In this document: positions 21,293 to 64,000 of the stretch, one piece after another | Layout: each line of letters begins with the position of its first letter | Numbering within the stretch: the first letter of the stretch is position 1 | From: Amphiscolops sp. MND2022 | Lineage: Eukaryota | DNA: 64,000 nucleotides | Assembly (NCBI GenBank): GCA_964187785.1 | Contig: OZ076411.1 | Span: 43,028,001 to 43,092,000 of the forward strand | Direction of reading: 5' to 3' | Position numbers and translations under genes: made by a program | Notes under the pieces: model-generated | The model's database searches: none | Seen by the model: the letters and a program-made list of their open reading frames with translations, nothing else | Told to the model about the DNA's origin: nothing

Positions 21293-21516
21293 TGTTGAGG
21301 CTCAAATATTCTGTCAATGGAGCAATTCCGCGTGAAAGAATAAAGACATGTGAAAAACAATTTGATACTTTACTTAGACTTTTTCACGTCTTTTCATTGT
21401 TGCTCTTTTCAAATTTCTGATCAAATCACACTCCTCAGAACTCATTGAAAACAATTCGATCTCAATAATAAAATAAATTTTCTTTTGTAAACGGCTTTTC
21501 AACAAAGTCTACAACA
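21293..21516 (+). repeat. 3' LTR of BEL element 2
   Basis: TG...CA, directly after the PPT and directly before the CCATA TSD. Confidence 0.95.
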
Positions 21517-22339: not shown

Positions 22340-23647
22340 CATCTTTTCAAAGCCTATTCAAGCATTAGTGACTTCAATTGAAACATATGTGTGATCTATT
22401 GAAACATTACCGGAAATGAAAATTTGATCACGTTTGGATACGCGTTCGTATGTTCAATTGAAACATTGAAAAACCTATTGAAACACCTTGCAAAATGTCC
22501 TGCTGTCAAGCTGTTGCTAGCATAGATAAGCGACGTATTCTTGAAATCCATTCAAATGGTGGATATTTTCTTACATTAGCTCAGAGTTTGGGGATCAAAA
22601 GGACTACGTCCTATCAATCGTGCGACGCGGGAGAGAAGAAAACCTGCCGAAGGGTGGTTCTCATAACAGAAAAATTGATGACGAATTACTTCAGCATGCT
22701 GTAGACATTCTAGAGGGCAACCCAATGTTGACTTTGAAACAGCTCAATCACGCTATAAGAGATAAATTACCGAGCAGGCCTCAATTCATGAGCCCCGCTA
22801 TCATTAACATGCGCAAAAGTTTTGTTGACGAGTTCGAAATAAATGTGCACTTGCGCCGAACTCAAGGGCGATCAGCACCAGGCGATAGAGTGTACAGAAA
22901 AGTAGGAAGTCAGAAGGGTCCCAATGTGACTGTTTGTTGCGCAGTATCGCCTGATGGAGGCTTACTACATTATCAAGTTGTCCAAGGCGGAATAAAAAAA
23001 ATATTTGCCTAATTTTTTTCAAGTGTTATGTGGGAACCTGATGCTCAATGAAGGCCCTGATGTAGATGGTGTCTGTATCTTTGATAACGCCCCAGGGCAT
23101 GCAAGAATTGAAGCAATGGATCTCAATGGATTTTTTCAGCTCCGCCGACTCCCTAAGTACTGCCCCTTTCTCACAATGGGTGAGGTTGCGATTTCTAGTT
23201 GGAAAGCTGCCATGAAAAGAATTATGCAAGAAGAAATGATCACATTTATCAATGCTGACCGATTGAGAGCGCCAGGAGTTACGCTGCAGCAATATCAATC
23301 TGATCACTTGAAGTCTATCGCGGACCCATCAAATGGCCACATAACACCCCTAAAGTGTCGTGGCTGGTATAACCATACAATGACGTATATTCCAGACTGC
23401 CTTGCTATGAAACCTATTGATGGTTAAATATGTTATCCGCTTTATCAAGTTTATCTGTTTTCTCTTTCTTTATTTATTTGTGGCCATTTGTGTATAAATG
23501 TTTCAATAGAAATTCGTTTGTTTCAATGGAACTCACTTTGGGAAAATTTGTTTCAATAGAACTTACTTTGGCTTTACTGTTTCAAAAGGAGTTGTTACTT
23601 TTGTTTCAGACGAGCTCATTTTTGTCTCAATAGGCGTTGAAAATGTG
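22340..23647 (+). mobile_element. IS630/Tc1-mariner superfamily DNA transposon, degenerate
   Basis: TA flanks (22338-39, 23648-49); imperfect ~20-bp TIRs catcttttcaaagcctatt / cacattttcaacgcctatt; subterminal ATTGAAAC repeats; transposase remnants inside. Confidence 0.8.
22495..23427 (+). pseudogene. DDE transposase (DDE_3-like), frameshifted and internally deleted
   Basis: HTH-like N-terminus, FVDEFEINVHLRRTQGRS, NVTVCCAVS, IFDNAPGH, LPKYCPFLTMGEVA (cf. LPPYSPFLNPIE). Confidence 0.85.
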
Positions 23648-27628: not shown

Positions 27629-27828
27629 NNNNNNNNNNNNNNNNNNNNNNNNNNNNNNNNNNNNNNNNNNNNNNNNNNNNNNNNNNNNNNNNNNNNNNNN
27701 NNNNNNNNNNNNNNNNNNNNNNNNNNNNNNNNNNNNNNNNNNNNNNNNNNNNNNNNNNNNNNNNNNNNNNNNNNNNNNNNNNNNNNNNNNNNNNNNNNNN
27801 NNNNNNNNNNNNNNNNNNNNNNNNNNNN
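27629..27828. other. Assembly gap (200 N)
   Basis: Run of exactly 200 N. Confidence 1.
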
Positions 27829-37900: not shown

Positions 37901-40840
37901 ATTGTCAATTCGACAGGTTGTTTCTGCTCTTCCAATTTGTATAGCGCATGAATTTGAATGAAATCACAAATCTATATAAAATTTGATTGGCTGAAAGTAT
38001 GCAAACAAAACATCTGTGTTATTACAGACAGTAGTCAAAAACTCAATGAGAGCAATAAAATATGTTATTATCAAAATTGTGGGAAAATACGAAGTGTGAA
38101 AATCCGGAGTAATTTACATGGCACAGGGCCGGGACCTCAAAATATTGTGTTATTACGAGAATTGTGTTATTATCTGGATTGTTATTACACGGTTTCGACT
38201 GCAGTTTCATTAAATTTTTTAGAATGGTAGTTTTTTTTAAAAAAAATTTCATAGTAGTAGAAAAAATCCATGAAAGCATTGAAAAATGCCCAAACTGACG
38301 GAAAAACACCAAGATGGGAACCTTTAGGCCTGAAAAACGTCTTTTTGTTTGTCTAAATAAGGAAAAAATTGAAGGGGTACCTCTTATGTACCAAGAAGTA
38401 TTTCGAAAAACTTTTGTCAAGGTTTGCTAACAAAGATTTTTACGCCGCGGCAAGCATCGAACCGACGATTGTCTGTGTGGGAAGCGTCCTTTCTAGTTAC
38501 TGGCTGCGTGAACAAACTGGCGACGTGATCAAAAATTCTGTTGAAAATGAACCCTTCTAATACATTCTTTTGCCCTACAAAAAACTAGTCAGTTTAACAG
38601 TCGCGCACATTTTCGTACAAAATGCGCCGACTAAAAACAACACTCTTTTTAACAATAATAACATGATAGCCTTCTGAAAATGTCAAAATACGGTACTTTT
38701 GGCATAAAGTGTAGCTTTTGACTACGTTATCAAAACTACATTAAATGGATCGCATGAAGCCTATATAAGTTCATGAGACATCAGATGGTTCCATTTCTTC
38801 AAAGCCTTGAACCAAATAGTTCCATGCATGAAAAAACGCATGAAAAGCATGGGTTTCATTTCATGGCTTCATAAACAGAATCGCTTGGAACTGTGTTGAT
38901 CATATCGCTTCATGCATGGTAGCCTCATAACTTTGGATATGAGAAAGCATACGCTGTGAAACGCATCGGGTATTACTTCCTGTACACTAGTCACATTTCA
39001 TGAAAATAATGCATTTTTCTGCTGAAAGTTTTTGTGAAGTTATTAGAATAGATTGAAGTTTCTGATTCCTAATGCGTTCATATGATTAAAAATTAGTTTC
39101 CGGCCAATAAATATTACATGGAACTCTTTTCTATCGGGTAACTAGTATCTAATTAGGATTTCCAGCAATTAAATGAGACCATTCCAACCTGAACCCTGAC
39201 TTCAGGCAAGTTGACCCTGGCTGCCAGCTCTTCGCGGCTGTACACGTCGGGGTAGTGAGACTTCTCGAAGGCCCGTTCAAGCTCGTGCAGTTGATATGTC
39301 GTGAAAGTTGTCCTGTTTCTCCTGTGTTTCTTACCAGACCCTTCTTCGTCGTCTTCATCCTCTTCTTCTTCATCGTCTTCTGCACTTTCTGCATGACTTG
39401 TGACGTCATCGCAAAGTGGCCCTGTTGAAAAATGAGTGACTTCCCTTCTAAATTTCTGAGAAAAATTTCATCTAATCATCTAACTTCAAAAGGACTTGAC
39501 AGACAGGGTGGTATCCATGCAAGGTTTCCGGTTTGTGCGCTTCGTTCTTCGAGAAAAATCACATTACCTTTGTTTTCATATTTTGATTTTCGTATTCTTT
39601 TTGAAGAGTGTCAGGGTTTTATCTTGAATGCATTTTCTAAAGCTTCAAGTTCAAGTTTTGAAAAAAGTTCTCCCATGTTTCAAAGAGGGTATACCCCCAG
39701 CATGATTTACATATGAACTTTTTTTTTTCAATTTAGCTGTCTTTTCTTCCATTCTTTTTTCGCATTCGTCTGAAATACATTTTTGATAAATGTTGGATAC
39801 TTAATTATTGGAAATTGGCTTTAAGTACATTAACATTAAATAATTACCTGAAGTGAAAGATTGTGTGCGTTTCATGATGGGCGATGTTTTAGAACAAGTC
39901 ACTGAAGCACCTTCTGACTTGGGAGCTGAATATCTGGGCCACAAATTGCCAGACTTAACTGCCAGATCTTTGCTGAGTAAAGGAAAGGTTTTTTCCGAAT
40001 CTGATAAATTGTTGGGATATTTTTTCAGTTCGAAGTCACCGCCGGTTTTGCTCTCTTTGCTCTCGTGGCCAGCTGAAAAATTTTATTAAAATTAAACAAT
40101 CTAATAGCCACAAATGTCTCGCGAGAATTTGATACATTTTCGATGAATGATGCGTGATAATTGTTCAATTGATTGCAGCTTGTAATGTTTAATTGAAAGC
40201 TAACAATGGCTAAAATTCTTGAAGAAAACAGAATAATGGCAAACTAAGTTTCATTGTTTTTCATTGACGTTAATTCTATTCACTCTTTTGTTCAAAAGGC
40301 TTGCTTGATCGTTTCAAACACTCAGGGGTAATCCTGCATTAATGAAAACTTCATGAAAGTTAATTAAATTTTTGTTTTTGACAAACTTCCGAAGCTTTTC
40401 AATGTAACTTAGATGTAAAATTATTTAAAAAAAGACAGATAAGATAAAAGATGGCGAATAAAAAATGATGAAAAAATTGAAACCATTGAATTAACACGTT
40501 TTATTTTGAATTTGATTTATCTTCCTGTGTCCGTGATCAAATTTGTTTCTAGTTGCCTTTTTTTATAGAAAAAAGTGCCTTTTAGTGAGCATTTCATGAC
40601 AGAATTAACTTGTTTATCTTTTTTGTGGCTAGGGATGTCAGACTTACGTTTGGTCAAGTTGCTTGTGGACTGATGAAGATCTAGAGTTCTGGAAGCAGAG
40701 TTATGGATGCCAAGAATGGAGCTGATAGAGTAAACTCGTTTCTCCGCAGAACTGCTGTCATCGGGAGAAGTTTGTGGGGTTGCTGACAAAAGTGAAGAGA
40801 GACGAAAGTTTTCCATGGGCGAAGAATTGTTAGACTCCAT
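28645..40840 (-). CDS. rx: Retinal homeobox protein Rx/Rax; join(complement) 40648-40840, 39848-40072, 39189-39421, 29172-29431, 28645-28936; 1203 nt, 400 aa
   Basis: Homeodomain [46 protein letters not shown]|[14 protein letters not shown] is almost identical to Rx; octapeptide [11 protein letters not shown]; Rx motif PTPLDNWL; all four introns GT-AG with matching phases (1,1,0,2). Confidence 0.95.
29172..29431 (-). CDS. rx: Rx coding exon 4 (homeodomain helix 3 end, Rx motif, poly-Ala)
   Basis: [17 protein letters not shown]...PTPLDNWL...AAAAAAAAAA; acceptor gtgttgtag, donor gg|GTGAGT. Confidence 0.97.
32560..32840 (-). repeat. Diverged copy of the tRNA-headed AT-rich repeat (Rx intron)
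   Basis: ttggtttagtgcgggactcgatccc matches ttggtttagtgcgagactcgaaccc at 34891-34915, with homologous flanks. Confidence 0.6.
32937..33130. mobile_element. GC-rich MITE-like segment with CCACCGGTGG palindromic repeats
   Basis: Starts TA|CCCGGGTT; about six CCACCGGTGG-type palindromes in 200 bp; matching right TIR not found. Confidence 0.5.
33480..34967. repeat. Modular AT-rich interspersed repeat with tRNA-like head at 34897-34967 (minus)
   Basis: Shares modules with 1-570; minus-strand head tgacctagtggttaaag...gggttcgagtctcgcact has A- and B-box. Confidence 0.6.
36913..38201 (-). mobile_element. Tigger-like (CENP-B/pogo) DNA transposon, internally deleted
   Basis: TIRs TA|cagtagacttcgtgtaataac and gttattacacggtttcgactg; minus-strand remnants [49 protein letters not shown]. 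Confidence 0.8.
36999..37170. repeat. 43-bp tandem repeat, 4 copies, inside the Tigger-like element
   Basis: aatgcattcta... recurs at 36999, 37042, 37085, 37128. Confidence 0.9.
38270..38640. repeat. Fragment of the modular AT-rich repeat with terminal hairpin
   Basis: Ends agtcagtttaacagtcgcg...gccgactaaaa like 527-568. Confidence 0.5.
39189..39421 (-). CDS. rx: Rx coding exon 3 (acidic tract and homeodomain residues up to 46)
   Basis: [27 protein letters not shown]...EVRVQ; acceptor tttcaacag, donor cag|GTTGGA. Confidence 0.97.
39848..40072 (-). CDS. rx: Rx coding exon 2 (predicted)
   Basis: 225-nt stop-free symmetric phase-1 exon between ttttcag acceptor and g|GTAATT donor; not in the ORF track. 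Confidence 0.7.
40648..40840 (-). CDS. rx: Rx coding exon 1 (octapeptide)
   Basis: aacaaaATG start, [18 protein letters not shown]...[11 protein letters not shown]; donor aaac|GTAAGT at 40647. Confidence 0.85.
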
Positions 40841-41039
40841 TTTGTTTGGATATCTGACTTGGAACCGAGAAAAAATTGGAAACGACAATTTTTTCACCAA
40901 ATTGGAAATATCAAGAGCTGAAACGATCTTTCTAATAACTATTTCTGTGGGGAGTTGATATTGTTTTCATTTCGTATTTGATCAGTTTTTAATGTGAAAT
41001 GAATGACGGGAAGGGTGAAAGTGGGAGCCTACTTTGGTG

Positions 41040-46245: not shown

Positions 46246-49200
46246 AACTAGTCAAGTAACTATATAAAATAGTCAAGTAGTTAAAGTAGTTAAGTGGTAG
46301 AGCGTGGAGATTTGTCAGAATTTAGGGTAAAAAGCGCATCACAGATCATGAATTTCATCCCTTATTATATGTGGGCGGAAAACAACAAACAAAAACATCA
46401 AATCGACATGAAAGAATATGATTTGAATTAAAATTGTGCATTTTTTCTCACATGGGACTTCTCCAGTTTTTCCCCTGGAGTTAAAGAAACGACGATAAAA
46501 TTTTTTGATCAAGTGGTGCTCCTGGAAATCGAAAACTATCCATCTTTGGGAATGTATAATTTCGAACTCAATGAGCTGAAATCTAAAAAACAATGAGCAC
46601 TGATTCACGTCATTGGTTTTTTATTTTCTAACATACTCCGTGTTGAATGGAAAAACCCATGTGGTTTCCTTATTTCATTCAATGTAAGGTGTGTTAACCT
46701 GATTTACCGGACAAACTTCCCAGATAGTTTTCTTCACGATAGCAGACAAGAAATTTCGGCATGACTCATTTAACTATCAACCTCTCTGAATGTTTTTTCT
46801 TCACAAGAACAACATATAAGACACCATTGGAAATCCTTGATCGCTAGAAATTCAAGGGACTGGAATCGAAGATCGAAATCAAAACAGTCCATCAGTGTAA
46901 TTTCTCAGTGCGATCAGTGTCGTTTCTCGCTCTAATCTATGGTTTCATTAGTGATCCTTTTCTCATTCGATGTTGGGGCCATCCCAACATTTTTTCGTAT
47001 CTGTTGTCCAAAAAGTATTTGGTCACGTGTTCCATCTTATTATGAGAACATCCATGTTCTCAGTTGACTCTTCGGTACCTGCATTGGACCACAACCGGAA
47101 ACGAAGTTCCTTTGAAGTTTTCAGGATCTTGATGCCTGGGTTAATGGTCAACAGGAGAGGAACGTCTTAGGGCTAAAAAACGAATACAATGAGACGCTCT
47201 TTTCATGAAAATTCCGAAAAATCTCACTCGGAATTTTACAGAAATTACTCGGAATGAACAGAATACCCAAATCCTCCACCAAATTCTTTCTTCGGCTTGA
47301 ATGGGTATTTCGTAATTCAATTGTCGAAAAACTCCAGGGGTGACCCTTTGCACTGTTGTAGCAACGTTTGCTCACTCTAACTTCTGTTAGAACTAACTTT
47401 GGTGAACTATAATTTTTTGGATTGCAGTTTTACCACTCGAGGGGTCATTCGGTTTTCCCGAGATCACAAGTACTGATGTGGTGTAAAACTTCATGTCTTT
47501 TATACCGCAGTATTACGGACATGATAGTGAGGAAAACATTGAATGGTAATAGGTCTGGAAAAGCATCAGAGGAGTGTAATATTTCCAACATGTGAAATCT
47601 TTCTGAACATTCCAACACCAGAACAAAACGCCCGCTGAGCTTAGGTGTATTTTCTGCCCTCATTTACAGTGGCGATTTAGCAACGACATATTTTGAAAAG
47701 GCTCGAGCGTAATCAATAAACTCACGCTAACAACAACGATCTAAACATGCACATAAATTGAAAATTTGGAATAATAAACTTCCTGCTTATTTGGTACATT
47801 TCTTTCTAGGCTATTGGAAACACAGGAATACATCCAGGTGACAAGAAACTGAAAGTCATCTAATTTAACCGAATGTCCGCCAGTGACACGAATTGGTAAG
47901 GGAAGATTCGAGGTTACAAAAGTTTACACTTCAGGTCGCTGTCTGAGAGCTAAGAAGGTAGGCCGCTAATTGATATTCTAACAGTCGTGGATATCCGGTT
48001 TATAAAAACCTTCTAAAACCGCAACTAAGTAGTCGTTCCGTTCTTCACTTTTTCCAGATAAAAAGCTTTTTTTTTCAAGTAAAGATAGAATTCTAACGTT
48101 TTCCTTCACTGAATCATACCACTGACGTTTTGAATTTGACATTTACGCTTCGATCTGAAGGTCAAATTTCATTTCTGATCCTTTTTCCTTTCTTGTTGCT
48201 CGAAATGCCGCTTTTATTTCAGACGGATGTTCGAAGAGTAATTTGATTTTAGTTATTCCAGTTTCTGTTTATGAAAAAATATCGCCTGTTTCTGAAAAAT
48301 TCTGAATTGTTTATCGCCTTAAAACTCAAGTTATTACGACCTGGTCACATAGGAATGTGGTTTGAGCGACCTGGTCATATAGGAATGTGGTTTTGGGCGT
48401 TTGAACTTTGGTTACCTTAGTATTTGCTGTGCGAAGAAAATGTTTCAAAGCAAATTCGGGAAAATGATAAGTTATAAAGCGAGTTTAGGTTGTGGTTATT
48501 AGAGTTTGAAGAGAAGTTAGAGAAGACGTTACTTGTTTCCCAAAAATACTTTTGACTTGAGTTTTTCTGGAGCTAGAAACAAAAAACCGGAAAGATGGTA
48601 TTGGATCATTAAGTTCAAAAGGAAAGACTCTTTTTTTCGACTCTTTTGGTGTTTCTAAAATTGATTGAATCTGTCACAAGAACACCAACGATGATCGAAT
48701 TGTAAGTATCAATACTTTTCAAGTATCAATAGATTCTTCCCGGTTCTCCAAAACAATTTTCCCGCAGTCATTTAACAAAGGGCAGCGAAGTTCTTATGAC
48801 AGATTCGGTAAGAAGGAAGTCTTTGCGTTTGCTTAGCAGTACGTTTTCCCAGCTAGTGACGAGTTTAGTAGTTATTTCCCTTGTCTTAAATTGCCTCAAC
48901 GAGTGTCATGCACACATGAAGGTAATATAATGACACACTTGTATAAACGCAACCATGGAGTAAGAGTAAAAAAAACAAACACAATTACAATTTTTATAAT
49001 CATAAACCGATCGTATTCGACATATATTGAGGAAAAACGAAGGAAACCCATGATCTCGGAGGCCTATCCAAGAAACAACAAACAGAAGGATGATGCACAA
49101 AATGCCCATGTAGTTGGGTACGAGAAAAGAAGTAAAATTGCCCAAAATGGTACACAGAATGAAGAAAACAGCTCATTAAAATGAAATAATGGAGAAGCAA

Positions 49201-49622
49201 AGGGAAACAACAAGAGTCGAATACAAAACGATGACTCAAGAACAAAAAGATATGAAAGGTATGCGATGTAAGCGGACAAAATGGCATCCAAAGAGCTGTG
49301 AAGATATGAATGCACAGTTATCAGAAAACGTCAGAAAGTGGTTATAGACGAATGGTTAACAGAACTGCAGAGACGACACTAAGGAAGGGAAAAAATGGGG
49401 TCAATGAATAAGCGAAGCTGAGCACATAGCACATAGGTTCAAGAACGAGTGAAAAAAATATAGATGTTAGAAACTGACTGTGAAGCGGTTGGAGTGAAGC
49501 GGTTGTTATTACAAAGAGAGTAACAGAAAAGTACAACAGACTGGTACTGAGAAGAAAACACACAACACTCAGGAGTCCAAAAGGACGGGATAAATGGCGC
49601 TAGCAGATAACGCCTTGAAAAG

Positions 49623-51837
49623 TCAGAGGGGGATAGTTGTGTAATGTTGATCATTATTTACATTTTTGTGAAGGAGACAACGGTTCTGCCAACGAAAGTT
49701 GGGGTCATTGCGGATGATGTCTATATGGTGTGTGGGGACAGATAGCACTGGTTTTAGTGGTATTTTATGTTTGACGTTGTCTTTATCTTTGTAAACATGT
49801 TTGAATGGCATGAATTTATGTAAACTATTGCACCGATGAAAAAGGTACATGAATAATAGATGTAACAACATAGATATTATAAAACTTGCTATGCCTATTA
49901 CGATGGTTGATGTAAAAGAAGTAACGTGGCTGAGTTCACGTTTAAATGGATTTTTCAAAGAGGTCATAAGCATAATTATTGGTTCAGCGAGTTTTTGAAG
50001 TGCTTCTCGATCTTGGACTGATGTTTGTGGGATTTTAGTTCTTTTTTCAGAGATCGTAAAAATGCCAAGTTTGCTGAGGATTTTGTGCTGAAGGATGGGA
50101 GCTCCTCGATGGAAGGAAGGACGCTCAAAACATTCTGAAGAGGATCGGGAAGATCCACATGAAGTTTGATGGATGGAACTCGAGAGCAGGATTGTAAATC
50201 AGATCGAATGAAGATATTGGGTCCTCGCAGTTGATGACCACATGGAATTGTATAAATACAAATGCGGCATCCTGGATATGTGCGAGTAGATAGATGAGCT
50301 GTGTCGTTGCTAGCTGCTGACTCACGAAGTTCAAAGTCAGCATCAGCTGAAAGGATCAGCCAAATGCCAAATTTCAAAGTGATCGCTCGTTCGAATATTG
50401 GCAACTGGTAGGGAACCAAGTCACAGACTTTCATAGCCTCGACAAGGTCGCCAAAGAAAAGAAGAGACAGGCATGAAGAACCTGAGCCTTCAGTTGCGAA
50501 TCCTTGCTGGCAAATGCTGTAACGTGACGACCCAATGCATTGGTCCAGCTGTTGACGAGACACACTGGCAGTCTCGCGACCATCTTTAGAGACGGCGAGA
50601 AAATCAGCGTTTGTGTCCCAGATCATTGCCATGTCGTCGTCATGCTGGAGCATGGGCAAAGGGATTGCTTCGTAAGTTGTGAGAACCGTCTGACGCGAAG
50701 CCAAAGGGATCGACATCGTAATGAGCAATCCTTCAGGCAAGGCGACAATGTCTTGTAAAAGCTGCGATTCGTAATATGACAAAGTCTCCTGGAAAGAAAT
50801 TGCCAGAGTGAGACGGTATCGTGCCTTGTTTTGAATGTTTTGTACAATTGTGAGAACTTCCTCGAGTGACGGGCGGTCAAGAAGAGACATAGGGACAAAC
50901 TTGTTCAAGAGAGCTGGAAGACTGTTCAGAAGGTTGAGGCGATAGGCAAACAGCGCTGCACGATAAGACTTCACATTGGAATGAAAAAGAGAAAGAAGTG
51001 ATGCCACAGTATCGAAATTAAAATTAATCTGTTGTCGGGTAAACAACAGCTGATCACAGTTCCTCATCCTGTGAATATCATCGCGGAAGGCTTCAAATTG
51101 AACGGTTATGGTCTTCCAGTTGGCATTCTGTATATCAGCCATCTGCTGTTGGAGATCCCGAATCGCTTGTAATTCTTTGCCTACAACAAAGAATTTCTCA
51201 TTGGTAGAAGATTGGATGTGTTGCAAATTTTCGGCAAGGGATTCAGTCATCTGAAACATACGGTTGATGGCGTCAGCATTCTCCCGGGATTGACAGGTGC
51301 CAAGGATACCTGACAAGCCACAATCGCCAGAACCCATTGCAATTCCAGTGCCAAAAAGTCCAATAACTCCAACAGCTGCTGCTGCTAGAGGCAGGGCTCT
51401 TCGAAGTCGATCAGCATGTGATAAGCTGGGAGAGGGAGGCGGCAAAAAGGCAGCGATTTCTTGTTGGAGGGCCAAAAGTGCTTGTTCAGAGTCAGCGACT
51501 TCTTTTTGTACTTCAGAAAGAAGCCAGTTGACATCAAATCCCTGCATTGGTGTATTGGTGAAATTCAAATAACAATTAAAGGTTGGCATGTCCCACATTG
51601 TGTCCAAGATGGAGAGAAGACGCTGAATATCAGATTTGATGGAAACTGAGAACTGGGGAAAAAGAGAAGAAATTCTACGTTTATGAACTTTTCGGCAAGC
51701 AATATCTTTTTGTGCTCATGAAAAATGATGCCCTTTTTGAGTGGGCCATCAGAATCGTCGAAGGCGGCAATCGGCGATTGTGCCATTCCCAAATGTGGGA
51801 GGAAGAGAAACAAAAGAGACATGCAAAACACAAACAT
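49623..51837 (-). pseudogene. env: Envelope glycoprotein, class I fusion (baculovirus F / errantivirus Env-like), ~740 aa with two frameshifts (~51660, ~50005)
   Basis: Signal peptide MFVFCMSLLFLFLPHLGMAQS; furin site RLRR (51398-51409) followed by ALPLAAAAVGVIGLFGTGIAMG; heptad repeat; FLAVSKD...LDQCIGSSRYSICQ Cys pattern; TM IVIGIASFIISMLLHLLFMYLF in ORF 49623-49973; 543-aa central ORF intact. Confidence 0.85.
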
Positions 51838-54800
51838 CCTGCTGGGTGGTTCAGAGCGTAGGATGAAGGTCAATGCTATTTATGTCCTTTATCAATTTGG
51901 CAAGTGAATGTGATATATACAAGAAATGGAGAGCAAGTTTGTGAAAAGAAAATGTTAAAGTTGAAATCGTTGTTTTCGAAAAGGTGAAGTGTTCACGAGA
52001 GAGATTCAAAAGTCGAATGATCGAACAAAAATGGAATCGTACGATAGAAGTATAAACAATGCATAGTTTGCTATTTAAACCGGTTGTTTAGGAAGTTTTG
52101 TCGAATGTGCAAGAAGTAAAACCAAGTTTCATTATTGAGTTTGTGAATTGTAGAAGTATAAACAAATGCATAGTTTGCTATTTAAACCGGTTGTTTAAGA
52201 AGTTTTGTCGAATGTGCAAGAAGTGAAACCAAGTTTCATCGTTGAGTTTGTGAATTGTACATTTGGCAAGTAGTCGTCTTATTTAGTCTTATTGCTTCAG
52301 TCTTGTTGAGTATCATCAAAAGTCTTTTATCTACTACTAACTTCAAACGTAAGTGTGTTTAACATGTGTATTCCAGTTCTTCAGAGTCTGTCAAAAATGA
52401 ATTGCCCAAAGGCAAGTTTCGAGGGTTTTATCCTTTGGTGCTGTCCCGAGGGGACGTACGTGGAACGAGGGGGTCGACTCCTCTCGTTCACGAAAGTGCC
52501 CCGACCCGAGTGCTCTCCCCCAGTCGCGACAATGACTGAGAACACCGGGGGAAGTCAGGTCGGTGTGTGGGTGAGCCTGATTCTATCGGTGCTCATTAGG
52601 TGTTTGTGTGTTTGTGCTGCCAGGCCTGCCGTAAGCAACAAAAAATAGAAAACATAGAAGAAGAAAGAGAAAGGCGAGAAGAAAGAAGAGCAGTCAGAAA
52701 ACAAAAGAAAATGAAGTCAGTTGGCTTCCGAGCAAGAAAAGAATTTGAAAGAAAACAGAAAGAGAGAAATTTGAAGAGGAGGAAGAACTAAAGTGTCAAA
52801 AAAAGGACAAAAAAACGTAGGGCCAAACAGTAGTTCTTAAGCGAACAAAAAAAGAAAAGAGAAAAGAAAAAATGACAAAGGAAGTTAGAAGAAAAAAAAG
52901 ACAGTCGAAAAAGAAGGAAAAAAAACCGTCGTCTAAAATGTAAAACTATGTGTAGTATTGATATATATGTATAGAGTGCTAAAGCACGCATAATACGTAG
53001 TGTGGCCAGTGAGAAAAAAAAGGAAATAGAAAAAAAAGAAAAGAGAAAGAAAAAAATACAAAAAAGGAATTGTAGTGAAAAGAGTAAAAGTTTGGCTGCA
53101 AAGCCTTTTGTTTGAGTCAGCAAGTAGTAGTGAGAAGAAAGTAGCAGTAAAGAGAACTTATATTGGTTGTGGTCTAACGGTATTCATTGGGTTTTTCAGA
53201 TCGTCATAATGGAGAGATTTTTGCACGAAGCTATCGTGAAGTACTTGAATGATGGAGTGCTCGATACATCAGTATTAAAGACGTCAGAGAAGAGGGAGAA
53301 CTTTAAGAAGGTGTGCCGCAGTCTGAAGGTGGAAAAGGGTGTGCTTATGTATAAGGGGAGAAGAAACGAGTTCTTGCCAGTTCCAACGCCAGAACAAGTG
53401 GACAATCTCCTATACAAAGTTCACGTGAAAAAGTGGAAAGAAGGAGAGAGCGATGTCGGAAAGAAGCACTACGGGGGGTACAGCTTCACATCGATGCCTT
53501 GTCTGGAGCCGGGTGGCGTATCCAGCAGCTCTAGGAAGCTTAGATACGCTAGCCGAAGAGTAATTGACATTTCATTTATAGTACATGTGAAATATAAGAA
53601 AAAATAAAAAACATCGGCGTGTGTCTATGTGTTATTAATCAACTGTGATATAAAAAGTGGTATACTATATGAAGGACAAAGTGTCCATAGATGGGTATTA
53701 AGAGGTTCTTGCGAAATTGCCAAGCATGCTATTTCGACAGTGAGGAGGGAAATCGGGCACATTTGTATATGCCTGCAACGCTGAAACGGGGTGTCGAGCT
53801 TTGTGAGAAGTTCGGTTATATGGGAGGAAGAGAAACAAAAGAGACCTGCAAAACACAAACATCCTGCTGGGTGGTTCAGAGCGTAGGATGAAGGTCAATG
53901 CTATTTATGTCCTTTATCAATTTGGCAAGTGAATGTGATATATACAAGAAATGGAGAGCAAGTTTGTGAAAAGAAAATGTTAAAGTTGAAATCGTTGTTT
54001 TCGAAAAGGTGAAGTGTTCACGAGAGAGATTCAAAAGTCGAATGATCGAACAAAAATGGAATCGTACGATAGAAGTATAAACAATGCATAGTTTGCTATT
54101 TAAACCGGTTGTTTAGGAAGTTTTGTCGAATGTGCAAGAAGTAAAACCAAGTTTCATTATTGAGTTTGTGAATTGTAGAAGTATAAACAAATGCATAGTT
54201 TGCTATTTAAACCGGTTGTTTAAGAAGTTTTGTCGAATGTGCAAGAAGTGAAACCAAGTTTCATCGTTGAGTTTGTGAATTGTACATTTGGCAAGTAGTC
54301 GTCTTATTTGAGTCTTATTGCTTCAGTCTTGTTGAGTATCATCAAAAGTCTTTTATCTACTACTAACTTCAAACGTAAGTGTGTTTAACATGTGTATTCC
54401 AGTTCTTCAGACTCTGTCAAAAATGAATTGCCCAAAGGCAAGTTTCGAGAGTTTTATCCTTTGGTGCTGTCCCGAGGGGACGTACGTGGAACGAGGGGGT
54501 CGACTCCTCTCGTTCACGAAAGTGCCCCGACCCGAGTGCTCTCCGCCAGTCGCGACAATGACTGAGAACACCGGGGAAGTCAGGTCGGTGTGTGGGTGAG
54601 CCTGATTCTATCGGTGCTCATTAAGTGTTTGTGTGTTTGTGCAGCCAGGCCTGCCGTAAGCAACAAAAAATAGAAAACATAGAAGAAGAAAGAGAAAGGC
54701 GAGAAGAAAGAAGAGCAGTCAGAAAAGAAAAGAAAATGAAGTCAGTTGGCTTCCGAGCAAGAAAAGAATTTGAAAGAAAACAGAAAGAGAGAAATTTGAA

Positions 54801-55845
54801 GAGGAGGAAGAACTAAAGTGTCAAAAAAGGACAAAAAAACGTAGGGCCAAACAGTAGTTTTTAAGCGAACAAAAAAAGAAAAGAGAAAAGTAAAAATGAC
54901 AAAGGAAGTTAGAAGAAAAAAAAGACAGTCGAAAAAGAAGGAAAAAAACCGTCGTCTAAAATGTAAAACTATGTGTAGTATTGATATATATGTCTAGAGT
55001 GCTAAAGCACGCATATTACGTAGTGTGGCCAGTGAGAAAAAAAAGGAAATAGAAAAAAAAGAAAAGAGAAAGAAAAAAATACAAAAAAAGGAATTGGTAG
55101 TGAAAAGAGTAAAAGTTTGGCTGCAAAGTCTTTTGTTTGAGTCAGCAAGTAGTAGTGAAAAGAAAGTAGCAGTAAAGAGAACTTATATTGGTTGTGGTCT
55201 AACGGTATTCATTGGGTTTTTCAGATCGTCATAATGGAGAGATTTTTGCACGAAGCTATCGTGAAATGCTTGAATGATGGAGTGCTCGATACATCAGTAT
55301 TAAAGACGTCAGAGAAGAGGGAGAACTTTAAGAAGGTGTGTCGCAGTCTGAAGGTGGAAAAGGGTGTGCTTATGTAAAAGGGGAGAAGAAACGAGTTCTT
55401 GCCAGTTCCAACGCCAGAACAAGTGGACAATCTCCTATACAAAGTTCACGTGAAAAAGTGGAAAGAAGGAGAAGGCGATGTCGGAAAGAAGCACTACGGG
55501 GGGTACAGCTTCACATCGATGCCTTGTCTGGAGCCGGGTGGCGTATCCAGCAGCTCTAGGAAGCTTAGATACGCTAGCCGAAGAGTAATTGACATTTCAT
55601 TTATAGTACATGTGAAATATAAGAAAAAATAAAAAACATCGGCGTGTGTCTATGTGTTATTAATCAACTGTGATATAAAAAGTGGTATACTATATGAAGG
55701 ACAAAGTGTCCATAGATGGGTATTAAGAGGTTCTTGCGAAATTGCCAAGCATGCTATTTCGACAGTGAGGAGGGAAATCGGGCACAATTGTATATGCCTG
55801 CAACGCTGAAACGGGGTGTCGAGCTTTGTGAGAAGTTCGGTTATA
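51796..55845. repeat. Direct tandem duplication, 2,025-bp unit (51796-53820 and 53821-55845)
   Basis: Near-identical copies offset by 2025 nt; junction ggttata|tgggagg. Confidence 0.97.
52045..52257. repeat. 106-bp tandem repeat (2 copies) between env start and antisense ORF; repeated at 54070-54282
   Basis: tagaagtataaacaatgcatagtttgctatttaaaccgg... at 52045 and 52151. Confidence 0.9.
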
Positions 55846-56529
55846 CGTGTAATTGGGAACCCATCAGTGGGGAAAAGACCATTAGCACGGCAGTGGTATT
55901 GGACTGTCCGAAGAGGAAGGAGCCATTGGGCGAGCTGGCAGAATTTGGAGGCGAGTGTTTCTTCTCCAGTATATACTATTTGATGGTTGGAAGGAAATCA
56001 GGTAATAAGATTTTTAAAAAAATGTGAAGCATAAAAAAAACTGTGAGCGAAAAGTTTGTTATATATAGAACGGCAGAACAGTGCACCAAGTAGGAAGTGC
56101 AAGGGGCTACGTGTGGCAGCTACAGAGGCAATGCAGACTGCCGAATTTAAGGAGTACTGCCGCACATGTCTCGGGACCGCGCCCAACGATTTCTTGGCAC
56201 AGGAGTGTGCAAAAGTGACGGCCAGCATTTCCGAGGCGGCGGTAAGGGTCAGATGGTGGCCTTATTATATGTGTATTTCCATTGTAAGGATGAAGGGCTA
56301 TGAGAAGGCAAAAAAATTATTTCAGATCTTAGCAACTGCCTGCGTACTGCAAACAGACCTCATTGTGTACTGGCAGTACTGGAATATGGGCGGCTGGATC
56401 CGTTACAAATACGGACCAGCAAGCAATGGGCGAGGTGGCAGCTTCTTATGCCAAGACATCCAGGGAGGCAAGAGGGTTCAGACTCGCTTCCATTGCGAAC
56501 CATTACCCGATTTTCCGGAGCCAGAGTGA
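52397..56529 (+). CDS. Putative antisense spliced accessory gene of the Gypsy element: exons 52397-52570, 53200-53559, 55716-56001, 56069-56529 (about 425 aa); integrase-H2C2/GIN1-like N-terminal region plus unknown Cys/Trp-rich domain
   Basis: GT-AG introns join ORF-track fragments in frame (phases 0,0,1); peptide LHEAIVKYLNDG...GVLMYKG...EQVDNLLYKVH...KHYGG...MGIKRFLRNCQAC resembles an integrase zinc-binding region; no DDE core follows. Confidence 0.5.
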
Positions 56530-57456
56530 GTAATATCGAATATTACACAGAGAGTCAGTAAGTCTTTTTGTGTGATTCTGTGAAAAGAGGGATATTTTTA
56601 TTAGATTAGAGACATCACTGAGGGTGCCAGGGCCTGTTGTGGATCCGTGAGAAGAGGAGGAAGAGCAGGGAGCCTGTGGAAGTAGCTCCATGCAAACATA
56701 AGGGTAAGAAAATGCACTTGTGTTTGGAAAAATATAGGAAAAATCAATAAATAGCAAATTTTTGCATGTTTTTGGATCAAATTCCAATAAAAGCGATAAG
56801 TATGGGGTATAATATTGCATATGAACATCATAGAAAGCTAGGAGAGGGTTTTGGGGGCCATTACAGTTGAGAAAAAGACAGAAAAATACAAAAAATTGGC
56901 AAAAAAGGCGATGTGAGACTAAAGAGCGAAAACGTCCCCCATAAATACTTTTTTTTATTTTTTTTTCGATTTTTCCGGTAAAAAAGGGGGATCACCGCTA
57001 TTCAGGGATCAAAATTCCAAAAAAATGGGGTTTTTAGGGGTCTTTGAGAGTCAGATTTTTCAGGGGTCAAAAAATGGTCAACTTTTTCTGCAAAACGGCT
57101 AGGTAAAAGGGGTTGGTATGGGACCAAGGGCCTGAAAACTATACCTAGGGGATGTGGGGGATCCCACAGTGATAATGAGGTATCATTCAGGTCGAAAAGG
57201 AAAAAATATGATACAATTTTTGGTCAAGAATGGTCGAAAAACAGCGATTTTCGAAAAAAAATCGAAAATTTTATCAAAAATGTCAATGAAAAGGGGGTAA
57301 TTCAGGTCTTTATGTGGATGAAAGAGGAACTAGAGGGATAGCAGAGGGTAATAGAAGGCGCAAAGGATACATTAGGAAAGGTTAAGTCGGGAAAAAAGAG
57401 AAAATTTATCCAAAATCATGGAAAAATGGTGTGAAAAATTAAAGTAAAAAGTGGTG

Positions 57457-60400
57457 TTATTTCCATGGTTTGGAATTTAAAAAGGTTGTACGGCTCGGTT
57501 TGGGTCGTAAACGAGTGTCACGACGGTTTGGGGGAAGCTGAGGTGGTGATCGTAACAGTGGATGGGGTGGTAGGAGTATGAGTGTTACGAATAACAGTAG
57601 AGGGTACAGTGTGATCTCGAATAAAAGCATCAAGATCTGTGATAGGTAACACAGGTGTGGTAGATGGGCGGTATGACGGGGTTCCTTGTGGGAAAGAAGA
57701 AGTAGCAGCAGGGTTTAGTGCCTTTGGCGGTGGGGTTGAAAGTGTAGGGGTAGTAGGACGCGGAATGCGTTATGATGGTGGGCGAAGATATACCGGTTTC
57801 GAGTTAGGTTGGCTTGGATAAAGAGGGGTTTTATAAAAGTCAAAGAGAGGTGTTGGATTCAAGTGAGGGTTATTACGAGGTGGTGACGCAATAGCGCGTG
57901 CTCGATTAACAAGATTTTCCGAAAATTCCGAAAACGAAGAAGACGAACTCTCATGACCGGGTGTACACATCGGTATACGTTCCGAGTGATAAGGGGGCGA
58001 ACCTGATTGTTCCAAGTCCAGGGTTGGCATAGGTTCATGGGGTAATCCAGAAGAATCAGGAAGGTTAGAGGAAGAAACATGACTTGAAATAGGAGTAGAG
58101 TGCATCAAAGGTTGGCGACGGGTCGAAGGGGTAATAGTCGTTGCTATACCAGAAGTCGGCTGGGCGATAGTAAAAACGTCGTCAGAAGTGAGTGTTGTTT
58201 CTGGGGTGGGGAAAAATGAAGAATGGGGCATGTTTATTGAAGAAAATGGTGTTCCTGAGGAGGAGGAGGCAACGAAAAACGAATGATGGTGTTGATCTTG
58301 GAGTGGTACAGTTGAAGTATCAAGCCGAGCTTGATAAATAACGGGAGGAAGATGAACATGATTTTCTACATGTGGGAAGTCGCGGTTAGGAGGGACTTCA
58401 GGTTGAGGTAGGGCATGTAAAGGCTGCGGTAGACCGGAAGGGGTACCAGGAGAGCCTGAGGTGCCGGTGGTGCCGGGGGAGCCGGTGGTGGCACCGGTGG
58501 CACACGACGTGGAACATAGTGAAATACGACGGCTGGCGTGTCATCAACTTCGTCTGCATTAGTAAACGTACGATCAGTTAAAAGGTCTGGAAGAGCCTGG
58601 TCAAAGAGGGCGGGCTCTGAGACGTGTCTCGTAGAGGGGTCAGGAACAAAATTAGTTTGGTTGATATTAACAATATCATCGACTGTCTATTGTGGTGTGA
58701 TGGGACGAAGTCGAATTCGATGTACACACTGAGTGTAATTGGTGCCTACCTTTCGAACAATGTAATTGAAGTTTGTGAGAACGGACTCAACTCTATACAG
58801 AAATAGCCATTTGGTAAGCGATTTTCCCATATGGTCGTTGGTATTTGAAAGATTTGGATTCAAGAGTAAACAAAACGAATGTTTTTTCAATGGGGCGGCT
58901 GACGCTTTTTGGTCATAAAAATGTCTGTATTTATTGTAAGCAGTGATGGTAGCATCACGTGCTAGAGAAAAAACTTCGTTCATTTTATCTTGAAGAGTAC
59001 TCGTGAATTCATAACGTGTTTCAAGGGTTTGCAAAAGTTTTTTATCAAACCGTAAATCAAGTTGTGAATGGGGTTGTCGGCCATGGAACAAAAATGTTGG
59101 AGTGCATCCAATTAAAGCATGGTAAGCCGTATTATGTACAAACACGGCCGGATCTACGTATTGGTGCCAATCACGTTTACTTTTGTTCTCATATATGCCC
59201 AGATACTGTTTCAGAGACGCGTGAGAGCGCTCGACGGACCCAACAGTTTGTGGGTGTTTTACAGTGGCATATTCTAGTTTGATTTCAAGTAATCGACTTA
59301 GTTCAGTCATGACACGGGAGGTAAATGCTGTACTCATATCCGAAAGAACAACTTTCGGTATATAGGCGGATCTCATGAAAATTTGGAATAACTGTTTCGC
59401 AACATTCGGTGCGCTGGCGTTGCGCAGAGTTTTCGCAAAGAGATATTTACTGAAATTGTCTTTGGCTGTAAGTATATGGGTATAACCTGCGGAGTCAGGT
59501 AGTTTACCTACAAGATCGACTTGAAGCAAATCACCTGGATAGTATTTGTCAGTCGCAAGGGACAAAAGTGGTGTTTTCAACGTTTGGTGTTTAACAGGTT
59601 TGATTTGAAGACAAGAGCTACAATTTTTTACATAATTGGCTAGACATTCAACAAAACCAGGGAAATAGGAATGTTTACGAAAGAGTTCTGCTGTTTTAGC
59701 AATGCCAGGGTGGCCTGCATACTTACTATTATGGACTCGATAGAGAGCTTCATTTCGCAAATGTTGGGGAACGACATATTGGCGAATAAAATTTCGGCCA
59801 GTATCATCAAAAAATTTACGGTATAAAATACAATGGTGATTTTCTAAACAGTCAAAGTGTTTGAGATACTTTCGAAGTTCCGTATTCATATAGGAAAGTT
59901 CAGAAGACGGCCTTGTTTCTAACCATGATAACACTAATCTAATAGTGTTATCTTTCTGTTGTTCCTCACGCAAATTTAAGGGTGTTAATTTGTCAGAAAG
60001 GTCCAAATCATCCAGAGGGTTCGGAGAATGGACGGCGGTAATTTCGAGAAAAGATGCACGGAGACTTTCCGGAAGACTGAACGTTTCACAGTCAAATTTG
60101 AATGAATTTACTGAGTTATCGGGAACCTGCATGCCCAAATGGAGGTGGACATCAGCTACAAGTACTTTAGAGTTAAAGCGGAGTTCTAGCTTAGTGTGTG
60201 GTTGGATATGGATTCTAGACAGACAATCTGCCGCTGCATTGGCTTTTCCTGGTATATGACTTAGGACAAAGTTAAAATTCAATACGTGATCCACACACGT
60301 CCAAAGGCTTGACGGAATTGTTTTAGCTTGGAAGAATCTAGCCAGACTTTTATTATCAGTTAGAACTAACACTGGTTTAGAACTTCCCCATAAAAAGTGT

Positions 60401-62600
60401 GCAAATGTGTCAAATGCAAAGTGCACAGCTAAGAATTCCTTAGCACAAATGGACACCTTTCAATAAGTTGGAGTGAAGATCTTGGAACCAAAAAAGACTG
60501 GCACATATGTTTTGTGGGTTTTACCGGTTTGATCAATGGAGTAGTCTTCGATTAAGAGGACGTATCCAGCTGCATAAAAACTAGCATCGGTTAAAATTAC
60601 ATATTGTGCGTTTGGTTTAGGTAGTCGAAGCGACAATTGACATGCTTGTTCAAGAACTTTTCGTAAAGTGATGATACTTTTATGTTCGTCCGTTAGAACA
60701 ATGTCCGATTCTTTTCGTAACAATTGGTAAAATGGTAGCAGTTTTTCACCAAGTTTTGGAAAGAATGAATGAAAAAACTGGAAAAAACCAATAAATAGTC
60801 GGATCTGTTTTATGGTTTTAGGTGGTTTCAGGGTGTCTAAACAGTCTGTTATTTTCGATTTATTGGGAGACATTCCTTCACTTGTTATCGTATTTCTCAA
60901 AAACGTCATTTTCTTTAGACCAAAGTCGCATTTACTGGGTGTGAGTCGTAGACCTGTCTTTTGTATACATTCAAAGATGGCTTCTAAATTGGCAATAAAT
61001 TCTCCAAAAGTTTTAGCTGCAGTGCCTAGGTCATCAGCCTATTGAAAGCACTGGTCGGCAACTATACACGGGTATAGGAATTTTCGCATGAAGGAACTAA
61101 AGGCGCTAACTGAGCGGCTTAGTCCTTGAGCTAAGCGCAAACATGCGAATGTCCTTGAAGGAAAATTGAAAACCAGCAGTTGCACTGACAATGGGTCAGC
61201 CATTTGTAGGACATGATACGCTTGACTGCAATCCAATTTTGCAAAATACTTCTTGCCAGCAAGATGCGCATTTACATCTGCTAGTGTTGCTATTGGTAAA
61301 TTGTGGTTATCGTGATCATGCCTGATTAAATGATTGATTCTTCTGAGATCTACTAAAATTCGCAATTTACCCGAGGGTTTACAGACAGCAAAAATTGGGC
61401 TTGAGTACTTAGAGTTTGTCAAGGTTGTTATTACTCCCCAAAATTGCAAAAGTGCCAATTCTACTAGAACTTCATCACGATAGTGGATTGGGGTCGGTGG
61501 ACCTGGGTATACATCGGCTTATCGTTTTCAGGGGTAAGTATCACTTTGAATTCTTCGTTTGCTCCAATATCTAAGCAATGTCTTGCGAAAATCCGGAGAT
61601 ATTTTAAAAGTAGCGTTTCAACAATGTTAATCTGTTCAGCGTTAAAAACAGAATTTTCCCAAGTAAAGTGTGAAAGAAATTTCTTTCGGTTTTCTAAGTT
61701 TTTATCTGGGTCTAGTTTTTTTCGTGATTTTAGAGGAATAATCTCGTCATAAATTCTTTTATGAAATCCTGTGAGATTTTCTGGGTCTTTGCAGGTTTCC
61801 GGAGCAGGAAACCAAAACTCATTTGTTGATGGGTATACTTTGGTTTCAGGGTCTTCAACGAGACCGTTAATACTTTTAGTTAAATGGTCAAAGGAGAAGT
61901 TCAGGATTGATAGGATGCAAGTATTGGGCTTGCTTTGCTGTCAAGATCGTTACTTTAGCAACAGGAACATTTCTGTGACTTTTACTTTGTATAGCAAAAT
62001 GTTAAGTATCCCAAGGGAAACTTGTTTTTGGTCGTTCAGTTTTACAATTGCGCTGGTGACGCAAAGTCCTGTTTGTTTTTCAAAACGCGGATTCGGTTCT
62101 ACAATAGCTACTGTTCCTTCAGAGAAGGATTCAGCTGAGAGAGAACAAGAGAATATTTCGGATGTATTCGGTTGTACCGAATAGTTTTGAATAGAGTGTA
62201 AGAAAAGGTTTTTCTTCGGAGTAAGCTGACTTACTTTTCCGTCTTTATGTATCCCTTCGGTTACTTGTAAAGTCATATTGGGTAGTTTCAGCGTTCTTGT
62301 TCGCCGATGAATAGAAATAACATTTTTCTCAAAAATTGGTAGTCCCAAAAATGTCTGGTTCATTGTTTGCATCAAAATGAATGTTTCAGTGAAAGATTCA
62401 CCTGCAATATTAAAAGAAGCTCGAAACGTGCCATGGGTGGTTACAGAGTCACCTTTTGCAACTTTTACAGAGCTGGTTGTTGGATTATAGTTGGTATTAG
62501 CTTTAGGACAAAGACGTTGTATCTTTTGGAATACGGTTAGAGGAATGGCACTTGAGAAAGAACCAGTATCAATTAGGGCTTTTACTGGAAAAGAGTGGTA
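57457..62600 (-). pseudogene. pol: Gypsy pol: protease, RT, RNase H, integrase and long P/S/T-rich tail; multiple stops/frameshifts
   Basis: ALIDTGS (~62570), YSSPIFAV / LRILVDLR / YFAKLDCSQAY, YADD mutated to TAG-ADD (~61030-61045), ILTDAS, ELLA/EFLAVHFA, HNSKYAGHPG...CSSC, QVDLVGKL, LSDMSTAF, GSVERSH. Confidence 0.95.
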
Positions 62601-62817
62601 CCAAAAAAAGTGGTGGTACCAAAAAAAGTGAAGTGCGAAGCTTTGAAGAAAGGATGTTTATAAATGATGAGGAGTTAGTCATATTAGTAGATAAAGAAGA
62701 AGAAATATGGGCAATGTGTGGCTTACTTAGTTTTTTGGATTCGAGGCATGTTGGTTTACGTCCATAGTGACCAATATGGAGGCATTTGAGTGATGGGTTC
62801 CATCGGCTGAGGCTGCA

Positions 62818-63940
62818 TCATGGGTTTTGGAGCTGTGAAGTTCGGAAGTTCGGCGCTGAGTATTGGGTGTATGGTAGGGCTGGAGGTTGATGTTGCTGAG
62901 GACGAAACCAGCATTGTGAGAGTATGTGTCCGAACTTGATGCAATAGTTGCAGTATTTTTGACTAGATTGCGCAGTATTGTTGTTTCGTTGCTGATTCCA
63001 GTTGGGTTTCTGATTTTGCCAATTTGGATTTGACGGTCGCCAATTTTGCTCATTGTTGTTGTTATTTTTCCAGTTCTGCTGGTTGTTTCTCCATTGGTGA
63101 GGGTTGTTTCCACGGGGAGCATTATTTTTGTTCCAATTTTGCTGCTCGTTTTTGTTGTAGATATTATTGTTTCTGTTGTTGTTCATGTCGGAAGTTTGGG
63201 CTGTAGTTAGCTGGTTAATGGTCGGTTGCAAGATTTTGGTCAATTCTTGCAATTCAGTGGACAACTTTCCAGTTCCTTGCTTGAGAACATCCTGTGCTTT
63301 TGACAACTCATGGATTCTTGTGAGGAGATCTTTTGTGGAGCAATTCTGATGCTCGTTGAAGGCGGTGTCGTCGTCTTCCGGGTAAAGACGATCTACAATC
63401 ATTCTGCAAGAAGTTTTTGCGCATAACTCCTCAATTGGAGTTTCATCTGGTTGTGTCATTAAGAAACGTTTGAGTTTGATAGGCATTCCATTAATGAATG
63501 ATTCTCTCACTCGTCGTGTTCTTTCTTGAGCACGATCTCCTGCTGCTACTGCAGGTCGTCCTTCTGCGGCGGCTCTTGCTACAACGTTGGGGTAGGCTTC
63601 CAAAGCCAATCGTTGCAATTCAGTAAGGCAATCTTGAGCGCTTTCCTCAGAGGGTTTCATTTTGCGGGAGTTGAAAAGCAACTTTTGAAGCTGAATTCTC
63701 TGATCATTTTGATATCTGTCACGTAGGGCTGCTACTGCTTGCTCGTAGTCATCTCAAACTGCTGCTTCTTGTTGGTCGAAAAATGTGAGTGCACCTCCTT
63801 TCAGATGAAGGTGAAGGTATACCGACGACAAATGCATTTGCGCCACCCATCGTGCCAACCGTAATGGTGCAGTCACAACCGTTAACCGTACCCGCAAGCC
63901 ATGTTTTACCGAATTTGTCTGCATGGACGTTTCCACCTGC
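62818..63940 (-). pseudogene. gag: Gypsy gag with N/Q-rich region and one CCHC zinc knuckle
   Basis: LHLKGGALTFF...(stop)...LFNSRKMKPSEESAQDCLTELQRLALEAYP, N/Q-rich linker, CNYCIKFGHILSQC (CX2CX4HX4C). Confidence 0.9.
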
Positions 63941-64000
63941 CACCAACAACGCGCCGACAGGTGTGATTCCCGTCACCACTTCGATTCAAGTAACACCAAC

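Follow-up and report, generated by a model that had tools for sequence, protein, structure and literature searches.

The env-like gene examined here is very probably the env gene of a decayed, env-carrying Ty3/Gypsy retrotransposon copy in the window (the whole 64,000-nt stretch of DNA that was analysed). We regard as secure the prediction that it specifies a class I F-type fusion protein, based on its anatomy, its protein family, a modelled fold and ESM features (Table 1). F-type env genes on non-insect Gypsy elements are already known, as is the combination of a CCHC gag, a dUTPase and an F-type env (as described in PMC13524379 and PMC5408684). What remains new is a long-branch radiation of env-F Gypsy elements and the presence of antisense ORFs in the pol-env spacer.

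Table 1. Features of the element, with positions in the window, strand and supporting evidence.
Feature	Position	Strand	Evidence
F-type (class I) env, two frame changes giving three pieces	49623..51837	-	ORFs and mapping of natural relatives; fold of relative P0078
Hydrophobic N-terminus, signal-peptide-like	51781..51837	-	Hydropathy; present in 45/66 full-length homologues
RLRR, furin-type site	51398..51409	-	RxxR in 61/66, Rx[RK]R in 43/66 full-length homologues
Fusion peptide, then two-Cys loop CGLSGILGTC	51293..51397	-	Both Cys 98-99% conserved
Long helix, heptad-repeat (HR1-like)	50906..51280	-	Heptad statistic; helix 222-311 of AlphaFold model
Cys-rich, beta-rich head with 8 conserved Cys, corresponding to F domains I/II	50186..50760	-	Model, fold match, alignment
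Transmembrane (TM) anchor	49848..49904	-	TM-like stretch, KD 2.5, in third piece; TM in 49/66 homologues
Probable 3' untranslated/LTR end, boundary approximate	48350..49622	-	G/C skew change near 48350
Tandem duplication, 2 x 2,025 bp, in pol-env spacer	51793..55845		98.7% identical; 21 substitutions, 6 indel columns
Antisense ORFs in spacer: 53158-53604, copy about 55228-55630, 55716-56024, 56047-56526	53158..56526	+	ORF list
Ty3/Gypsy pol: PR - dUTPase-like - RT - RNase H - integrase - Pro/Ser-rich tail	57457..62660	-	Pfam, PDB, profiles
gag with a single CX2CX4HX4C knuckle and a frameshifted 3' end, first 44 family codons missing upstream	62730..63819	-	ORFs, family comparison

Anatomy and predicted fold of the envelope protein

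The ORF survey yielded three env pieces free of stops on the minus strand between 51837 and 49623. The first opens with an ATG at 51837 and has a hydrophobic start (Kyte-Doolittle, KD, 2.0); the second (579 aa, 49979-51715) contains the RLRR site, an Ala/Gly-rich peptide beginning at 51397 (KD 1.9), the loop CGLSGILGTC at 51322-51293, the heptads and the Cys-rich part; and the third includes the membrane anchor, with the stop codon of the gene at 49625-49623. Thus, the signal peptide, RLRR site, fusion peptide, Cys loop, heptads, Cys-rich ectodomain and TM segment listed by a sequence-only reading of this DNA were all found where that reading had placed them, on the minus strand. In the heptad region (about 51280-50906), the hydrophobic fraction was 0.64 at a/d positions vs 0.38 elsewhere, compared to 0.50 vs 0.42 in a beta-region that served as control for the statistic. 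Natural relatives of 738 aa map onto exactly three frames of the window and hence define two frame changes, one at 51664-51661 inside a run of five T and the other near 50060-50030, which agrees with the two frameshifts, one of them in a T-run, that had been read from the sequence. The env pieces of the window gave no Pfam family match and no PDB sequence match.

The window env piece folded alone as a single sequence reached a pLDDT of 33.7, and the natural relative P0078 (738 aa, ~90% identical to the window) modelled with the family alignment reached 79.8 (pTM 0.67). The P0078 model is weak at the fusion-peptide/HR1 start, where residues 198-238 have a pLDDT under 50. A Foldseek search of PDB with this model returned 116 matches at E<=1e-3 with RSV F at the top (E 7e-7), and the matches listed were paramyxo/pneumovirus F throughout. 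In VIA-align, 49 of 50 rows were paramyxo/pneumovirus F, the best match being Nipah post-fusion F (Z 8.9, rmsd 4.8, 291 aligned). In BFVD, the strongest matches were to an abalone herpesvirus protein (E 1e-18) and to chu-like glycoproteins, and baculovirus F was matched at E 4e-14. TM-scores of the structural matches are low (0.2-0.43), with identities of 7-15% and a Z of only about 9. The class I F-type envelope proposed by the sequence-only reading is upheld by the predicted structure of P0078, through its matches to paramyxo/pneumovirus F and baculovirus F, and in part by profiles: 5 of the 58 env alignment members match Pfam Baculo_F, but neither the window pieces nor P0078 have a Pfam env match, and the 738-aa env has no match to PF00523. 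ESM features of the env are close to Baculo_F and Fusion_gly clusters (0.95-0.96, with a recognition value below the tool's threshold) and also to Gypsy-env and rotifer clusters (0.91-0.92).

Paramyxo/pneumovirus F, baculovirus F (Ld130) and lokiretrovirus Env, a mononegavirus-F-like vertebrate parallel as described in PMC9040795, have the class I F fold in common with the window family but are only 7-15% identical to it. Unlike these proteins, the window env has an additional Cys loop immediately after the fusion peptide, and it is encoded by a Ty3/Gypsy element, unlike the viral F proteins and lokiretrovirus Env. Influenza HA2 was considered as the nearest relative and rejected, since its profile matches (E about 1e-3) are confined to 77 positions in the fusion peptide and heptad and HA is missing among the fold matches listed.

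Relatives and conservation of the env family

Of 8000 candidates scored against the long env piece, 75 are homologues at E<=1e-3, ranging from 30 to 95% identity, and a profile search recovered 2710 representatives at E<=1e-3 (50% clustering). In a 104-row alignment, 12 ectodomain Cys columns are 94-100% conserved vs a mean of 40% for the other columns; together with the numbers of homologues and representatives, this places the similarity far beyond chance. Within the full-length set, defined as 66 homologues of 700-870 aa, the hydrophobic N-terminus, RxxR and TM segment occur together in 34 (separate counts in Table 1). Purifying selection on a working glycoprotein would leave such conservation of Cys and domains.

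The 90% cluster of the window env has 29 members, many of which are fragments. When an intact env was sought among other copies, at least three unbroken 738-aa ORFs on different contigs were found among the cluster members listed; they are 98.8-99.2% identical mutually and about 90% identical to the window env. Three unbroken ORFs so nearly identical to one another point to recent activity of the family.

Env relatives were absent from the viral contigs and prokaryote genomes scanned, and a metagenome scan yielded one 3.8-kb contig carrying env only; a second whole element was thus not found as DNA in these scans. This contig (L001, 1-3812) holds a same-family env of 42% identity, which is also broken, preceded by the Ser/Pro-rich end of an ORF that resembles the tail of pol; the arrangement suggests a much shorter pol-env spacer in this relative.

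Gag-pol of the element, the spacer and the element ends

The gag ORF 62821-63753 contains the knuckle CNYCIKFGHILSQC. As had been noted from the sequence, it has the form CX2CX4HX4C, and the CCHC is kept in 38 of 42 gag relatives of at least 390 aa. The pol domain order PR-RT-RNase H-IN, with H2C2 and rve domains, is that of Ty3/Gypsy (Metaviridae), and the integrase has its best PDB match in Ty3; a BEL/Pao identity, considered for weak DUF1759 matches in gag (E 1e-3), was rejected on the strength of the pol domains and this PDB match. The family consensus at the GPY/F position of the integrase is KWxPLYRV. Between PR and RT (about 62200-61950, minus strand) lies an interdomain that is common across the pol clade and predicted to be dUTPase-like: the window copy matches the family profile at E 1e-23 and has no Pfam dUTPase match of its own, and Pfam dUTPase is found in relatives P0542 (E 1e-4), P0568 and P0359 and in 2 of 29 A3 members. 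A bridge from RNase H to the zinc motif has a median length of 196 aa in the 32 of 75 pols caught by one search pattern, and its consensus before IN, judged by eye, has a helix and a short strand.

The window pol has five in-frame stops, one inside the YxDD motif of RT at 61041, as well as several frame changes. With the missing gag codons and the frame changes in env, all three genes are broken and the copy is dead. Unbroken gag and env ORFs exist in the family of the window, and unbroken pol in a sister family.

In a quick pol tree of 77 rows, after removal of 10 near-identical rows and of rows without the RT motif window, 61 rows form a clade that a very long stem (2.77 changes per column, SH-aLRT 100) separates from the other Gypsy matches. 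The window pol adjoins env-linked families in this tree, whose outgroups are few, long-branched and include no named errantivirus.

Nested in the pol clade of the window is a high-copy AQYVDD sublineage (proteins P0354-P0390) with clusters of 200 to about 500 members. No contig in common with the sampled env families was found for its 37 representatives or for 30 members of the P0377 and P0357 clusters, hinting that this sublineage may have lost env, with higher copy number.

The gap from the end of pol to env is 5.6 kb, or 3.6 kb once the tandem duplication is subtracted; the gap, the duplication and the breaks in gag and pol are absent from the sequence-only reading. The second 2,025-bp unit duplicates the initial 45 nt of env, a 107-bp tandem pair sits inside each unit, and the duplication may have arisen by a template switch or unequal recombination or may be an assembly artefact. 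Of the antisense ORFs in this spacer, the first looks like an H2C2 zinc domain of integrase type (ESM features 0.94, with only 129 shared), the next piece supplies a CxxC and the last is Cys-rich. These ORFs gave no convincing Pfam match and may represent an accessory gene, possibly spliced, or a nested insertion.

The G/C skew is one-sided and continuous from about 48,350 to 63,000, suggesting a single element of over 15 kb with gag-pol-env on the minus strand. No paired LTRs, PBS or clear PPT were found in the window, and the 5' end of the element lies outside it. Where the start of the family gag is expected, positions 63820-64000 hold unrelated sequence of opposite skew with weak similarity to a BEL/Pao-like element near 10,100 (E 2e-5); this is probably a nested insertion.

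Comparison with known env-carrying Gypsy elements

Chary & Hayashi (eLife 2026, PMC13524379) describe F-type env genes on Ty3/gypsy elements of annelids, rotifers, barnacles, tunicates, cnidarians and more, and name such elements 'ancient errantiviruses'. Their env-F and pol trees are congruent, and they exclude a single origin and argue for an ancient acquisition; the genome list of that paper is without Xenacoelomorpha/acoels. In their elements the bridge is described as an RNase H plus a 'mini' domain and not a pseudo-RNase H. Like these elements, the window family is multi-copy in a non-insect animal and combines a Ty3/gypsy gag-pol with a downstream paramyxovirus-F-like env, in which a signal peptide, a furin site, a fusion peptide and a TM segment are found. 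The order of genes in the window and the co-location in its family (see below) give a Ty3/gypsy pol and a downstream F-type env in one element, in line with the operational definition, which asks for an env of F or gB type, whereas the intact ORFs of the published elements are lacking in the window copy, in which gag, pol and env are broken. The window element thus fits the operational concept of an 'ancient errantivirus' used by Chary & Hayashi, and their F alignments, from a survey with 1,291 ENV_F rows, may include relatives of it. The published set consists of intact elements with a pol-env gap of up to 1 kb or with env within 3-5 kb of pol, against 5.6 kb in the window, or 3.6 kb once the duplication is subtracted. 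A spacer of such length suggests that elements of this kind escape surveys with tight gap limits. The text of the paper does not mention a dUTPase, a knuckle, or antisense or accessory ORFs.

Other likenesses are found in rotifers and tunicates. TelKA of bdelloid rotifers (Rodriguez et al. 2017, PMC5408684) is described as having a CX2CX4HX4C gag, a dUTPase between PR and RT and a paramyxovirus class I F env, all as in the window family. Compared by description, the env of TelKA is about 600 aa and scores on PF00523 and that of the window family is 738 aa and does not, and TelKA has GPC where the window family has its consensus at the integrase GPY/F position. Tor3/Tor4b of Oikopleura (Henriet et al. 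2015, PMC4402516) are non-insect Gypsy elements with a furin-cleaved membrane glycoprotein Env, like the window family, and the intergenic region behind their pol can contain a promoter for env, the window also having a spacer between pol and env; again compared by description, the Tor Env has seven Cys along with other conserved motifs and the window family twelve Cys.

Insect errantiviruses (gypsy, ZAM, Idefix) have the gag-pol-env order and a baculovirus-F-related env, as does the window element. The sequence-only reading had contrasted their lack of a CCHC knuckle with its presence here and proposed a different Gypsy lineage. The lack in insect errantiviruses is confirmed by the accounts in PMC2577118 and PMC1635307, and these viruses mostly have a pseudo-RNase H (as reported in PMC13524379). 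Because the CCHC of gag is conserved in the window family and missing in insect errantiviruses, the view that the window element is not a Drosophila-type errantivirus, though it would work like one, is supported. What is not supported is a claim of novelty, since the combination is published in PMC13524379 and PMC5408684; and the CCHC was rejected as a mark of novelty, the knuckle being the ordinary Ty3/Gypsy state and present in TelKA too (PMC5408684). Acoel genomes are rich in LTR elements, as reported in PMC6451197 and bioRxiv 10.1101/2022.08.27.505549. No description of an acoel env was found in the literature on acoel LTR elements and env, and these two genome papers do not mention 'envelope'.

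Origin of the env

A rather unlikely alternative origin is that the env was captured independently from an F-type virus (a mononegavirus, chu-like virus or mollusc herpesvirus) instead of being inherited from an ancient pool of env-F genes among animal Gypsy elements. Such a capture would bear on the origin of the env only and is compatible with its identity as the env of a Gypsy element. The very long stem of the 61-row pol clade, the scarcity of Baculo_F matches (5/58) and the top BFVD matches to an abalone herpesvirus protein and chu-like glycoproteins are in its favor. Nevertheless, the few, long-branched outgroups of the pol tree contain no named errantivirus, structural E-values at 12-15% identity cannot rank donors, ESM features also match Gypsy-env and rotifer clusters, and the congruence of env-F and pol reported in PMC13524379 argues for an ancient acquisition.

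An own capture of an F-type env is also one part of a broader scenario that we consider doubtful as a whole, in which the family would be a radiation of Gypsy 'retroviruses' with a dUTPase and a CCHC gag, long isolated and still active, in an unsurveyed host phylum that might, as a guess, be Xenacoelomorpha. Its pol-env spacer would hold an antisense accessory gene with a zinc domain, in the manner of complex retroviruses, and a much higher-copy sublineage without env would have arisen from it in the same genomes. If true, this would provide a natural test of the costs and gains of env. Independent of that scenario, the value of the find is that of a further sequence-distant env-F Gypsy lineage. 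Its families are numerous and divergent (30-95% identity), its unbroken env ORFs were amplified recently, and it can be included in phylogenies that address single versus repeated acquisition of F-type env. Should the host come from an early-branching bilaterian group not yet sampled, the lineage would fill a gap in the debate over F-env acquisition.

Proposed function of the envelope protein

By reference to class I fusion biology and Drosophila gypsy, the signal peptide of unbroken copies would take Env into the ER, furin would cut it at RxRR to give F2 and F1, and the TM segment would anchor it in the membrane of Gag particles. At a target cell, the fusion peptide would insert and HR1/HR2 would zip into a six-helix bundle; fusion would then deliver the RNA core into that cell, the most plausible route being one from soma to germline inside one animal. 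Because of the long pol-env spacer, the env RNA would probably be spliced or internally promoted, as described for Oikopleura Tor (PMC4402516). The window copy itself is incapable of any such step because its env, pol and gag are broken.

It is unlikely, in our estimate, that Env instead acts on the surface of the producer cell, fusing neighbours or opening bridges for intracellular Gag particles, with no infectious particles formed. Such a role would be consistent with a fold and motifs that show a membrane-fusion machine only, with the fact that no separate receptor-binding gene was identified, and with the statement in PMC13524379 that transmission is unshown outside Drosophila, but a conserved signal peptide, furin site, TM segment and cytoplasmic tail suit a virion envelope, for which Drosophila gypsy (cited in PMC13524379) provides the precedent.

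Linkage of env to gag-pol

Adjacency alone is no proof that env belongs to the element, because the 5.6-kb spacer contains a duplication and antisense ORFs. In our linkage test, family proteins were scored as sharing a contig when their contigs were equal in length, which stood in for identity. The linkage table compared 10 gag/pol clusters, each represented by at most 15 listed members, with seven env groups; its 60% env group was put together from the env homologue search, and different families in it could partly derive from different assemblies. Of the 127 gag/pol contig entries, 38 match the rank-matched env family and none match any other. Window-like gag clusters matched window-like env on 7/15 and 3/10 contigs, gags at 64-67% matched the 70% env on 5/15 and 4/10, and pol clusters matched the rank-matched env on 8/13, 3/12 and 8/10. 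An env partner was found on none of 12 contigs of pol cluster P0335 and none of 30 contigs of two distant control pol clusters, and env families P0013, P0034 and P0043 had no gag/pol partner in the table.

The contigs that gag or pol share with env are as short as 8.7, 11.8, 13.5 and 20.6 kb. Each of the three unbroken 738-aa env ORFs has a family gag on its contig, and 14 of 48 gag matches (the window's own included) share a contig with an env match. Divergence of gag and of env gave a Spearman coefficient of 0.71 over 14 non-independent pairs, after exclusion of the self pair and of one gag that could not be aligned. One candidate linkage pair, P0316/P0017, was rejected, since a single 1.4-Mb contig carries two different elements; this contig, which is outside the table, has a window-like env and a sister-family pol. 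The rank-matched linkage and the short shared contigs indicate that env is a long-standing part of this Gypsy lineage, and the absence of crossed co-locations agrees with the placement of env on a Gypsy element in the sequence-only reading.

These results make it very unlikely that the env is an unrelated neighbour, either the glycoprotein of an endogenised virus or a piece of a second, nested element 5.6 kb from gag-pol. A long spacer with a duplication and antisense ORFs, the fact that no LTR was found and a window rich in nested elements would be consistent with a neighbour, but family-matched co-location (38 vs 0), correlated gag and env divergence, short shared contigs, a common strand with gag-pol and a continuous skew speak against it. 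A host-domesticated, syncytin-like fusogen, which the strong conservation of the protein across homologues could recall, is exceedingly improbable for an env that is multi-copy (29 members in the 90% cluster, many fragments), broken here by two frame changes and co-located with gag/pol.

Other features of the window

Two decayed BEL/Pao-like elements were recognized by eye, at 4600-10900 (minus strand) and 15600-20700 (plus strand), and a 224-nt direct repeat (15298-15521 and 21292-21515) may represent the LTRs of the second. No tRNA genes were found in the 64-kb window, which has an assembly gap of 200 N at 27629-27828. A remnant of a Tc1/mariner-like transposase was seen by eye at 22545-23424 (plus strand), and a near-perfect palindrome occupies 12718-13826, with arms of about 550 nt that are 97-100% identical. 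About 9 kb from the 3' end of the element lies a paired-class homeodomain exon of a host gene (39153-39467, minus strand), putatively Rx-like by its motif, which shows the host to be an animal but no more than that, and an octapeptide-like motif is present upstream of it at 40517-40966 (minus strand).
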